From a phage: a stretch of DNA of 64,000 nt. Shown here piece by piece: positions 17,574 to 36,000 of the stretch. The notes beneath the pieces are model-generated. The model was not told where the DNA came from, did no database searches, and was given only the letters and a program-made list of their open reading frames with translations. The DNA lies in the NCBI GenBank assembly GCA_020381345.1, contig GCA_020381345.1_3636.1. One strand, written 5' to 3'. A program made the position numbers and the translations under genes. Every line of letters begins with the position of its first letter. Position 1 is the first letter of the stretch.

Positions 17574-18107
17574 CTACAGATGGTTGCTTATGGTGTCAAG
17601 AAAATTATCTCGTTCTTTCTCGGAGTTTTCACGGGTGTAGCTGAAAAACATATCTAGAATAACCTTATTGATATATTCCAGCTCCTCTGTGTTCAGGTAC
17701 TTAGCAGGATCTACAATGACATCCCAAATATCATACAGACCACACTCATGATATCCATAACGCCACTCAATTGTCAAGCTGAGCGGCAAATCTTTACCGT
17801 CACAAACAACCTTCCATCTACATATGTTGGTATCTGGGCGTATCTGTGCACGGTATACCTGTACAAAATCCAATTTGAATTTGAGGTATTCGTCATGCAA
17901 TTTAAGCACAAAGTTCTCGATTTGTGGAGACACTTTTGCAGCAAACTGTGCGTATTTGTATTTGCACTGGATGATCTTTCTGCGTTTTGCAGTTAAATTT
18001 TTTGCCGCCAGTTGTTCTTCAGTGTATCTCCACCTACGATCAACAAACGCAACAGGGTCTTTGTCCCCATAGAGGTCTTCCCAGTTAATCAGAAGCATAC
18101 CTGTCAC
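17574..18107 (-). CDS. hypothetical protein (177 aa)
   Basis: ORF track. Confidence 0.55.
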   Translation of the reverse strand: MTGMLLINWEDLYGDKDPVAFVDRRWRYTEEQLAAKNLTAKRRKIIQCKYKYAQFAAKVSPQIENFVLKLHDEYLKFKLDFVQVYRAQIRPDTNICRWKVVCDGKDLPLSLTIEWRYGYHECGLYDIWDVIVDPAKYLNTEELEYINKVILDMFFSYTRENSEKERDNFLDTISNHL

Positions 18108-19046: not shown

Positions 19047-19361
19047 CTACCAGGTCACTGTCAAGTAGGCAACTGTGTTATTTTTCTCCGGAGAGATGCC
19101 AACAACATCCACCTGCAGACCTCCTGCCCTCAAATCCCCAACAATGTGTGGGAAGTAGTCTGAGAGATGCGAGGGTAGATTTATCGAAAATCCGCATCCC
19201 AGAAAGCCTGCTAACGCTTTATTTTGTATCTCCCCTACAATCGCATCATAAATGGAGTTAAGCTCGTCAGGGAGCGTTACAGGACGTTTTAGCGCTAACT
19301 GGTGTAATTTGTCCTTAGCACTCATTTTCATTTCAGGTCTACCTCTGGTGGTGCCAACCAC
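19047..19361 (-). CDS. hypothetical protein (104 aa)
   Basis: ORF track. Confidence 0.5.
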   Translation of the reverse strand: MVGTTRGRPEMKMSAKDKLHQLALKRPVTLPDELNSIYDAIVGEIQNKALAGFLGCGFSINLPSHLSDYFPHIVGDLRAGGLQVDVVGISPEKNNTVAYLTVTW

Positions 19362-19861
19362 ATAAATGGCGGCAAGCCTAAACGGTTTTTCTTATCCCAC
19401 ACAAAATATGCATATGCTTGCCCGTCAGTTCTGCCATTTGATTGAAATGACGGACGCTTAGATATTGTGATCACAGTGGTAGGTGCATTATCAAGCCACC
19501 ATTCAAATCTGGCTTTGCTTTCCAGAAAATTAAGACGTAAAAGCATAATAACTACGTCAGCATCTTTCAACGCCTTGTCTACAAACTCACGAGCTAAGCT
19601 GTATGGTGGGTTGGTGATAATACAGTCAACATGGTTGTATTCTGTATTCAGATAGTCAACACCTTCTTGGATTTCTCCCCATGCAGATCCTAACGGCATA
19701 CGGGAGTAGAACACACCTGAGGCACTATTCCTGCAAGGCTCTAAGTAGGTCCAGTCTTCTGGGAACGGAATAAGGTCATACAGCCCTTCTGCACACCACT
19801 CCGGTGTCACATACTCATCGTAGGCGTTACGTTGTTCATCAGGTTTTCTAGCACAAGTCAT
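19328..19861 (-). CDS. DNA methyltransferase (N6-adenine or N4-cytosine type, 177 aa)
   Basis: Catalytic motif IV CIITNPPYS in translation; no adjacent restriction gene. Confidence 0.65.
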   Translation of the reverse strand: MTCARKPDEQRNAYDEYVTPEWCAEGLYDLIPFPEDWTYLEPCRNSASGVFYSRMPLGSAWGEIQEGVDYLNTEYNHVDCIITNPPYSLAREFVDKALKDADVVIMLLRLNFLESKARFEWWLDNAPTTVITISKRPSFQSNGRTDGQAYAYFVWDKKNRLGLPPFMWLAPPEVDLK

Positions 19862-19912
19862 GCAAATCTCCAGATCATAAAAGCCCTCCGAAGAGGGCTT
19901 TAGAATTAATGT

Positions 19913-34715: not shown

Positions 34716-35174
34716 TTAGAAGTTTGTTTTTACACGTCCCTTTTCATCAACCTCGTTGTTAGCTAAAAGCGTTACAAAGTCTGTGAAACGGACATGAAGA
34801 ACTCTTTTCTTATCAAGGTATCCTAAAGCCACCCCTGAGAAATTTAGCATCAAAGGGGCTAAAGAAGCTCTGGCACTGAAATGCTGTTGTTCTACCCTTC
34901 CAACACCCTTAGTGTAGGATGGGTTAAGATTGTAAGTTCTGAATCCTAGTTTTGTTGGAGCTTTAGAATTAAAAACAACTTTATAGCGTTTCTTACTCAA
35001 CTTATGCTCCAAGATAAGCATTCCCTTATCACCCTTGATAAGTTGAAAATCTGTAAAGTGCTCTTTTAAGACGAAAGGTAGTGCCAGCCCCATCGCCTGC
35101 CCCCTTTGTACCGCTGTCTCACCAAAAGCTTTTGCATCAGTAAGTTCTTTGGTCAAGTCTATGCTTTTGATCAT
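34716..35174 (-). CDS. hypothetical protein (152 aa)
   Basis: ORF track. Confidence 0.5.
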   Translation of the reverse strand: MIKSIDLTKELTDAKAFGETAVQRGQAMGLALPFVLKEHFTDFQLIKGDKGMLILEHKLSKKRYKVVFNSKAPTKLGFRTYNLNPSYTKGVGRVEQQHFSARASLAPLMLNFSGVALGYLDKKRVLHVRFTDFVTLLANNEVDEKGRVKTNF

Positions 35175-35955
35175 ATCTGGTCTCCAAAATGTATTGTAGT
35201 TCTTTCTTGCCTATACTCTTCATTCCAGCAGTCTTACCTGCTTCTTCTTGAAAAGAAGAATAGCATTCAGCAAACACTCTGTCAACACCGTCAACTAAAG
35301 ATTTTATGAAATATGTAGATTCTTCAGATTTTGGATCATCATCGCCCAATACTTTTCCAGCGTTATACCCAACACGTCTTACACAGAAGTCGTAGTCATC
35401 CGGTGTGCTAAAAGAAAATAACTTATTCTCTCCAATCTCTACAGGATCCCTATTGCACGCCTTTTTCTCCCAAATTTGGAAAACACATGGCACGTCATAA
35501 GGTTTGCCATTAAGTAAAAACGAGTTCTTAGGGCACCTTTCGCTGTAGACAAGGTGCATAGACATGTCCAGTTTGTTTGCAAAAAATATTTTTTCAAATG
35601 TCCGTGGCAAGATGAAGGCTATAGCCCCGCCAAGCTCTAGCAATGATGCACAATGGTTAAAGAATTTGCAAGCTAAAGATGAATTCTTGCCAAATGGTGG
35701 GTTACCTATGAAGACATCTGCCTTGGGATGCACCTCCAAGAAGTTTGCCTGAATGCACTGTGTTGGCCCTTCAAATTCAGGATCTGGTACTAAATCGTAC
35801 GACAGTATCTCTGAAAATAGTTTTGAAAAAGAACCCCTTCCAGCAGAAGGCTCAACGTATGCACAATTCCCATACTTATCTTTTACTCTACCAACAAGAT
35901 ATTCTGCATACTCAGGGTTTGTGTAGTATTTGTCGTTAGACTCTTTCTTGCTCAA
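35137..35955 (-). CDS. N6-adenine DNA methyltransferase
   Basis: Motifs EPSAGRGSF and VFIGNPPFG; the track N-terminus reads through a terminator hairpin, so a TTG start at 35955 with RBS GGAGG is proposed. Confidence 0.65.
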   Translation of the reverse strand: MSKKESNDKYYTNPEYAEYLVGRVKDKYGNCAYVEPSAGRGSFSKLFSEILSYDLVPDPEFEGPTQCIQANFLEVHPKADVFIGNPPFGKNSSLACKFFNHCASLLELGGAIAFILPRTFEKIFFANKLDMSMHLVYSERCPKNSFLLNGKPYDVPCVFQIWEKKACNRDPVEIGENKLFSFSTPDDYDFCVRRVGYNAGKVLGDDDPKSEESTYFIKSLVDGVDRVFAECYSSFQEEAGKTAGMKSIGKKELQYILETRYDQKHRLDQRTY

Positions 35956-35961
35956 AGTGCC

Positions 35962-35992
35962 TCCAAAAGGAAAAGGGAGGCGCAAGCCTCCC
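35962..35992 (-). terminator. rho-independent terminator
   Basis: Minus-strand stem GGGAGGC/GCCTCCC followed by TTTTCCTTTT, just after the exonuclease gene. Confidence 0.6.
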
Positions 35993-36000
35993 TCTACTTG

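Follow-up and report, generated by a model that had tools for sequence, protein, structure and literature searches.

Two methyltransferase genes in an rV5-like phage genome

We analysed a phage contig of 64,000 nt (GCA_020381345.1_3636.1; its full length is referred to as the window) and concentrated on two genes for putative N6-adenine DNA methyltransferases, which are called gene A and gene B. Gene A (35137..35955, minus strand) is predicted to encode a gamma-class enzyme of 272 amino acids (aa) and to start with TTG, on the basis of its open reading frame (ORF), matches to PHROG and PADLOC, a multiple alignment, and an AlphaFold2 (AF2) model. Gene B (19328..19861, minus strand) starts with ATG and encodes a minimal enzyme of 177 aa, as judged from the ORF, a PHROG match, and its orthologue in phage Bas51. 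The sequence 5′ of both genes contains further elements on the same strand. The TTG of gene A is preceded, at a distance of 4 nt, by a Shine-Dalgarno motif (GGAGG, 35960..35964), and an intrinsic-terminator-like hairpin (35972..35995), found in a terminator scan, lies between gene A and the gene for a DnaQ-like exonuclease. A terminator-like hairpin is also visible in the sequence directly 5′ of gene B (19881..19900).

The initial annotation of the window had noted the amino-methyltransferase motif IV in both genes and had spoken of two orphan methyltransferases. When the motif IV pattern [DNS]PP[YFWH] was run against the six-frame ORFs of the whole window with a length of 100 aa or more, only genes A and B were retrieved. 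The number of two is thus correct for the window; for this type of phage it is too low, as Bas51 encodes four methyltransferases (see below).

By sequence comparison, the window is an rV5-like E. coli myovirus of the genus Vequintavirus. The surroundings of genes A and B have 98-99% nucleotide identity to FFH2, V5, and more than 100 other records, and the two genes themselves are present at 90% identity or higher in about 120 phage records each. In more than 100 GenBank records, both are already labelled “putative N6 adenine methyltransferase”, “DNA methyltransferase”, or similar. The observation that two methyltransferases are encoded is therefore correct, and the genes belong to ordinary, already annotated phage biology. 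About 20 GenBank records of “Campylobacter phages” (MG0656xx) are 96-98% identical to E. coli rV5-like phages in both regions and are devoid of annotation; they are probably mislabelled or contaminant assemblies.

Gene A has the motifs and the fold of a gamma-class DNA methyltransferase

The gene A protein carries the sequences EPSAGRGSF (aa 35-43) and VFIGNPPFG (aa 81-89). Its motifs comprise motif X (D8..Y11-T12), motif I (E35-P-S-A-G-R-G-S-F43), motif II (D54), and motif IV (G84-N-P-P-F-G89). Towards the C-terminus, about 110 aa make up the target-recognition region. The linear order X - I - II/III - IV plus a C-terminal target-recognition domain is that of the gamma class (M.TaqI-like), and a motif IV of the type (D/N/S)PP(Y/F/W) is combined with a motif I on a Rossmann fold, as is characteristic of amino-methyltransferases. 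We aligned 46 sequences of the family, an analysis in which, according to the initial annotation, inactive motifs might have come to light. Motifs X, I, II, and IV of gene A are intact, and D8, T12, E35-P36, G39, G41, F43, D54, and G84-N-P-P-F-G89 are invariant.

Profile and structure comparisons are in line with this classification. Residues 8-253 of gene A match profile positions 2-249 (of 269) of the PADLOC family MTase_II (PDLC03255) with an E value of 3.5e-34, a profile for which PADLOC has no curated cut-off. Gene A also matches PHROG 5172 (E 4e-129); this group is labelled “unknown function”. The AF2 model has a predicted local distance difference test (pLDDT) score of 93 and a Rossmann fold, and in a structure search it could be aligned with M.BseCI, M.TaqI, CamA, and MmeI over 228-247 of the 272 residues. 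Gene A has at least 791 homologues, and the Bas51 protein bas51_0200 is identical to it at 270 of 272 positions.

Several searches weigh against the assignment. The Pfam scores are below the gathering thresholds, both for Eco57I (PF07669; 16.2 versus 25.3 bits) and for MTS (PF05175; 15.0 versus 23 bits), and the NCBIfam search gave no match at E values up to 1. Gene A does not qualify for the curated families Eco57I, MTS, or N6_Mtase (PF02384). A sequence search of the PDB retrieved nothing for gene A, and a search with the profile of its alignment gave only weak matches to Ta1320 and M.TaqI. PF26055, which is listed for some homologues of gene A, was not reproduced with the local Pfam copy. 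The classification of gene A as a gamma-class type II DNA methyltransferase with intact motifs is nevertheless well supported by the alignment, the PADLOC match, and the predicted structure.

Gene B and its characterised orthologue in Bas51

The gene B protein carries CIITNPPYS (aa 80-88), with the motif IV I-I-T83-N-P-P-Y87. Its motif I (L-E-P-C-R-N-S-A-S-G) is degenerate and contains no GxG; that it would function as the binding motif for S-adenosylmethionine (SAM) is deduced from the published activity of the Bas51 orthologue. Gene B matches PHROG 799 “DNA methyltransferase” with an E value of 5.5e-67 and has a weak match to PADLOC MTase_II (E 1e-3). It is below the thresholds of the phage Dam families PF05869 (19.2 versus 28.1 bits) and TIGR01712 (16.1 versus 97), as well as that of EcoRI_methylase (20 versus 26.4 bits), and the sequence search of the PDB gave only chance-level matches (E > 0.6).

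Bas51 was identified as Escherichia phage WalterGehring (MZ501111) and is 99% identical to the phage of the window. The protein bas51_0176 is identical to gene B at 176 of 177 residues and has the same length, and its gene is found at the same place beside a ClpP-like protease gene; conservative substitutions are located near the C-terminus (G160D and V174A). Bas51 mutants that escape the retrons Asa1 and Squ1 are altered in the gene for an “N6 adenine methyltransferase”, and the rebuilt mutants D69G, D79G, and T83P abolish retron defence (PMC12548924, PLoS Biology). The three escape residues D69, D79, and T83 are present in bas51_0176 and gene B, and they are not present in gene A, bas51_0070, or bas51_0074. 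In native nanopore sequencing, N6-methyladenine (m6A) at GATC was almost gone in the T83P mutant, and the cloned methyltransferase was toxic (PMC12548924). The mutants form plaques like the wild type on E. coli K-12, i.e. the gene is dispensable there, and as a trigger of the retrons Asa1 and Squ1 its product is a liability for the phage (PMC12548924). The activity has thus been demonstrated experimentally for a 99%-identical orthologue, and by this close analogy gene B is the GATC enzyme; it would be Dam-like in activity without being a member of the families PF05869 and TIGR01712.

A second retron trigger is encoded in the vicinity. The window gene at 17574-18098 (minus strand) is orthologous to bas51_0171, a “putative glycosidase” of Bas51, and has retained R87; a premature stop at R87 of the Bas51 protein leads to escape from retron Asa1 (PMC12548924). 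Two retron-trigger genes are thus located close together in the window, separated by no more than about 1.2 kb.

Gene B homologues with 48-66% identity were found in Klebsiella, Pectobacterium, Cronobacter, Phapecoctavirus, and phi92-like phages, and, where neighbours are reported, they often adjoin a ClpP-like protease gene. This distribution characterises gene B as an old core gene. For Pectobacterium phage CB7 (Certrevirus), a putative Dam-type adenine methylase has been described, and the ClaI digestion pattern of its DNA fits Dam-type methylation. The Certrevirus phage phiTE has a gene B homologue of 61% identity beside the protease gene, and, judged from this related phage, the CB7 methylase may also be a homologue of gene B.

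Bas51 DNA is methylated at virtually all GATC and GTAC sites

We compared the published numbers of methylated adenines with the numbers of sites in the Bas51 genome. The genome contains 703 GATC sites, i.e. 1406 adenines, of which 1405 were methylated in the wild type and only 35 in the T83P mutant (PMC12548924, S4 Table). GATC methylation is therefore complete and dependent on gene B. The host was a derivative of MG1655 (PMC12548924), and the loss of GATC methylation in the catalytic-motif mutant shows that the host Dam does not substitute for gene B.

For GTAC, the genome contains 258 sites with 516 adenines, of which 509 were methylated in the wild type and 511 in T83P (PMC12548924). About 99% of the GTAC adenines are thus methylated, independently of gene B, and a second phage enzyme must exist. 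To our knowledge, E. coli K-12 has no GTAC methylase. The number of “other” methylated adenines, outside of GATC and GTAC, fell from 576 in the wild type to 349 in T83P (PMC12548924). The decrease suggests some relaxed, off-target specificity of the gene B enzyme, and the remaining sites, about 349, may hide a third motif. With respect to other rV5-like phages, the rV5 genome paper reports neither a restriction digest nor a methylome, and our literature searches yielded no second report of GTAC methylation.

Taken together, we favour, with a probability of roughly 0.7, the interpretation that genes A and B encode active solitary SAM-dependent N6-adenine DNA methyltransferases, and that the packaged genomes carry m6A at nearly every GATC and GTAC. 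During infection, both enzymes would methylate the replicating phage DNA; gene B would mark GATC, and gene A, we infer, GTAC. The outcome would be protection from nucleases that require unmethylated GATC (MboI/DpnII-type) or unmethylated GTAC (RsaI-type or PabI/HpyAXII-type). The cost, as demonstrated for Bas51, is that the gene B product is sensed by retrons.

Restriction evasion and other possible benefits of methylation

The initial annotation had proposed self-methylation as a means to evade host restriction. The first part of this proposal stands, given the methylation of 1405 adenines in GATC and 509 in GTAC in the near-identical Bas51; evasion did not fare as well. The Vequintavirinae were found to be “exceptionally susceptible” to the restriction-modification (R-M) panel of the BASEL study and seem to have no effective protection (Maffei et al., PMC8594841), and the normal plaquing of gene B mutants on K-12 likewise counts against an anti-restriction benefit. 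The panel consisted of EcoRI, EcoRV, type I, and type III systems, none of which targets GATC or GTAC (PMC8594841). The exceptional sensitivity implies that the protection by genes A and B would be narrow, i.e. limited to enzymes that cut at GATC or GTAC.

Site frequencies differ between the two motifs. For GTAC, the ratio of observed to expected occurrences (O/E) amounts to 0.52 in the window, 0.59 in Bas51 (loci L009-L011), and 0.90 in a 50-kb sample of E. coli K-12. GTAC is the most or second-most under-represented palindrome of 4 bp in the phage and is as depleted as CTAG. For GATC, no avoidance is apparent in the phage (O/E 0.98-1.06). At GTAC, avoidance is thus combined with full methylation. 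The host sample does not share the avoidance of GTAC, which is a hint of real GTAC restriction pressure.

A selective value other than restriction evasion is possible, but we consider it doubtful. Dam methylation has established roles in the action of MutH and SeqA and at the pac site of phage P1. Full GATC methylation might accordingly shield the fast-replicating phage DNA from the host MutH and SeqA, or methylation might have a regulatory function in the transcription, replication, or packaging of the phage, comparable to that of Dam at the P1 pac site. In addition to the high sensitivity to the tested R-M systems, the normal frequency of GATC is compatible with this view, as it gives no trace of a past GATC restriction pressure. 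The phage DNA evidently escapes methylation by the host Dam in MG1655 derivatives, in which only the 35 methylated GATC adenines are left in T83P, and gene B is old and syntenic next to the ClpP-like protease gene in Vequintavirinae, Certrevirus, Phapecoctavirus, and phi92-like phages. In contrast, the wild-type plaquing of gene B mutants on K-12 gives no indication of an essential role under laboratory conditions, and for GTAC the strong avoidance points to restriction pressure.

Bacterial relatives of gene A and the origin of the GTAC mark

To predict the target of gene A, its bacterial relatives are informative. In a survey with one genome per species, 80 loci encode a relative of gene A. 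Directly 3′ of this relative and on the same strand, 18 of the loci encode a conserved protein of about 215 aa (L019, L025, L035, L050-L052, L055, L058, L062, L063, L068, L070, L074-L076, L078, L080, and L085; at ~3.75-4.45 kb in most loci). Residues that are invariant in this protein include H10, G11, F14, E15, K19, D41, K57, and N161...Q-R-R-x-Q-C-S175. It matches the PADLOC family REase_II (PDLC03460) with an E value of 2.5e-14; Pfam, NCBIfam, and sequence and profile searches of the PDB gave no matches. From these data, the protein is likely to be the cognate type II endonuclease. The pairing with an REase_II-matching protein indicates that the gene A family provides the methyltransferases of type II R-M systems. 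In the phage, its member is encoded on its own.

Type II R-M systems typically recognise short palindromes. We compared the frequencies of GTAC in the bacterial loci with and without the endonuclease partner. With the partner, 85 GTAC sites were observed versus 127 expected (O/E 0.63-0.67), and without the partner the values were 718 versus 752 (O/E 0.85-0.96). For Sphingomonadales, the O/E was 0.55 with the partner versus 0.85 without. For Rhodobacterales, it was 0.50 with the partner, and without it GTAC was not among the five most depleted palindromes.

On balance, we lean towards gene A as the enzyme that generates the GTAC mark. It is an enzyme of type II, a class that typically recognises short palindromes; its rival, bas51_0070, resembles type III Mod subunits, which usually generate asymmetric marks on one strand; and the depletion of GTAC in the partner-bearing bacterial loci adds a weak indication. 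A number of points speak against it. The Bas51 paper does not name the enzyme behind the GTAC mark (PMC12548924), no experiment ties gene A to GTAC, and gene A is not connected by sequence to any characterised GTAC methylase. The depletion test is weak as well: each locus is shorter than 7 kb, the permutation p value of 0.019 is uncorrected for the 16 palindromes and is not significant after correction, and CTAG co-varies with GTAC in the partner-bearing loci (p 0.025).

A Helicobacter prophage methyltransferase, which is a true homologue of gene A (34% identity), was considered as a link to the GTAC methylase M.HpyAXII. The motif IV Asn of the prophage protein lies near residue 100, in contrast to residue 87 in M.HpyAXII, so that the two are different proteins, and the gene downstream of the prophage methyltransferase has no match to PabI; the link was therefore dropped, which also weighs against the assignment.

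The rival enzyme is one of four methyltransferases in Bas51, of which the Mod-like and the Dcm-like one are encoded outside of the window. The “Dcm-like” protein (L010:17042-17806 of Bas51) has 254 aa and no Pfam match. The protein bas51_0070 (L010:14456-15781 of Bas51) is a type III Mod-like enzyme of the beta class with 441 aa, as judged from Pfam and PDB comparisons: it matches N6_N4_Mtase (PF01555) with an E value of 4e-42, and its nearest relatives in the PDB are type III Mod subunits, including EcoP15I Mod. If its orthologue generated the GTAC mark, gene A would be active on a different target, i.e. a rarer site among the “other” methylated adenines, or would be poorly expressed. This appears improbable to us, yet it deserves serious consideration. 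Bas51 has three putative adenine methyltransferases, yet only two clear motifs and 349-576 “other” sites; bas51_0070 is a bona fide N6_N4_Mtase and thus a further candidate; GTAC has been assigned experimentally to neither of the two proteins; and the depletion signal from the bacterial loci is statistically weak. However, Mod subunits normally recognise asymmetric sites and methylate one strand, but 509 of the 516 GTAC adenines, i.e. those of both strands, are methylated. The asymmetric one-strand marks of a Mod-like enzyme would fit the 349 residual “other” adenines. Furthermore, the gene A family pairs with type II endonucleases, and bas51_0070 is rarer, being present at 90% identity or higher in 88 phage records versus 121 for gene A. 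The Mod-like gene thus appears to be accessory, as far as its distribution among sequenced phages indicates.

We therefore prefer gene A as the GTAC enzyme. With a confidence just above even, and for all of its parts jointly, this can be extended to a proposal on the whole family: compact gamma-class enzymes (~260 aa), covered by no curated model, would methylate GTAC, with gene A as their founding member among phages, and in bacteria they would form type II R-M systems together with the poorly described ~215-aa endonuclease. From such a system, the rV5-like phages would have acquired the methylase alone, and methylation together with GTAC avoidance would provide a double shield against GTAC-specific restriction.

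A possible RNA target of gene A

It is very improbable that gene A encodes an RNA (rRNA or tRNA) adenine-N6 methyltransferase that modifies the host translation apparatus and does not act on DNA. The idea derives from the name “predicted RNA methylase”, which some sources use for some homologues of gene A, from one homologue that reaches the Pfam threshold of RrnaAD, and from another one with weak matches to Erm. However, RNA enzymes align with gene A over only about 150 residues, and solely DNA methyltransferases align over 228-247 residues, including the C-terminal domain. The match to the type II methyltransferase profile of PADLOC also spans the full protein, a homologue of type II restriction endonucleases is coupled to 18 of the 80 bacterial homologues, and a phage DNA m6A motif without an assigned enzyme requires one.

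Orphan status and neighbouring genes

Gene A is flanked by the DnaQ-like exonuclease gene upstream and by an ORFan of 152 aa downstream (34716-35174, minus strand; PHROG 9938), which overlaps its 3′ end by 38 nt. The neighbours of gene B are the ClpP-like protease gene upstream and a gene for a protein of 104 aa downstream (PHROG 12158). Searches of these flanking genes with Pfam, PHROG, and PADLOC gave no endonuclease match, in agreement with the earlier statement that no restriction gene lies beside either methyltransferase gene, and the annotated Bas51 genome lists no restriction enzyme. The data support the view that genes A and B are orphan methyltransferases.

The 152-aa gene was considered as a nuclease partner of gene A and rejected. 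That the two form a phage R-M pair, with a GTAC nuclease that degrades unmethylated host DNA in the style of chlorella viruses, is hardly credible: apart from the overlap, the unassigned function, a D-x6-E-x-K string, and the fact that host DNA would lack GTAC methylation, there is no further support for a nuclease activity, and the protein has no functional match in Pfam, PADLOC, or PHROG, is unrelated to the bacterial endonuclease partner (hhalign probability 0.2%), and has only five close homologues among 5.8 billion sequences, which marks it as an ORFan specific to the lineage.

Start codon of gene A and upstream regions of both genes

The longest ORF of gene A would begin with a TTG at 35985, which is located inside the loop of the terminator-like hairpin. 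This hairpin (35995..35972), 3′ of the DnaQ-like exonuclease gene, has a stem of 10 bp with six GC pairs, a TTGC loop, and a T-rich tail. The GGAGG motif (35964-35960) precedes the TTG at 35955, and the first in-frame ATG is found at 35565, 130 codons further downstream. In the alignment, gene A homologues from unrelated sources begin with MSKK... precisely where TTG 35955 is located. The coding sequence of 819 bp is also that of the curated GenBank records of Murica and DrSchubert, and Murica additionally has an annotated terminator and, at the equivalent place, a ribosome binding site (RBS). The proposal of the initial annotation that gene A starts at TTG, and that a longer N-terminus would read through a terminator, is confirmed by these observations, and the sequence features support TTG 35955 as the start codon.

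The 5′ layout of gene B is similar, with a hairpin (19900..19881; AAGCCCTC-TTCG-GAGGGCTT, followed by TT), a GGAG motif (19871-19868), and the ATG. A terminator-like hairpin and, after it, a GGAG(G) RBS thus immediately precede both methyltransferase genes, which leaves no space for a promoter. On the basis of this arrangement, both genes may be expressed solely through terminator read-through, which would suit enzymes that are reported to be toxic upon over-expression.

Significance

As the function of gene B is already known and annotations of both genes exist in over 100 public genomes, the results are of little importance for discovery and are mainly of practical use. The rV5-like phages are candidates for phage therapy and biocontrol, and the methylation of GATC and GTAC decides which restriction enzymes and methyl-dependent nucleases act on them; it also affects phage DNA in cloning and in nanopore basecalling. 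Moreover, the GATC enzyme is a retron trigger, so its presence predicts sensitivity to type II-A retrons. If gene A indeed is the GTAC enzyme, the unexplained GTAC methylation of Bas51 would be assigned to a specific gene, which would close a gap in a published methylome and provide PHROG 5172 and the bacterial R-M relatives with a name and a function.

Comparison with known systems

The type II R-M systems of PADLOC (PDLC03255 plus PDLC03460) include a methyltransferase that gene A matches over its full length, and the phage copy differs by having no endonuclease partner. In comparison with M.TaqI, M.BseCI, CamA, and the MmeI module, gene A is only about 15-19% identical and much shorter (272 versus 380-550 aa), and its recognition domain of about 110 aa is compact.

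With respect to the proposed target, the most similar enzyme is M.HpyAXII of Helicobacter pylori, which is of the gamma class like gene A and generates G-T-m6A-C, the mark that is found on the phage DNA (PMC2588503). The catalytic Asn is N87 in M.HpyAXII (PMC2588503) and N85 in gene A, a comparison by position and not by sequence. M.HpyAXII is paired with a glycosylase of the PabI type, whereas the bacterial relatives of gene A are paired with a different protein of about 215 aa. M.PabI and M.CviQI are further enzymes that generate m6A at GTAC, and RsaI is blocked by this modification.

Gene B resembles the Dam enzymes of T2/T4 and T1 and Dmt of P1 in being a solitary phage enzyme for m6A at GATC, with an NPPY motif IV and no cognate nuclease. 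It differs from these by its shorter length (177 aa), its degenerate motif I, and its membership in another family (PHROG 799). The closest characterised enzyme to gene B is its orthologue bas51_0176, which methylates GATC in phage DNA, acts as a trigger of the retrons Asa1 and Squ1, and is toxic as a cloned gene (PMC12548924).

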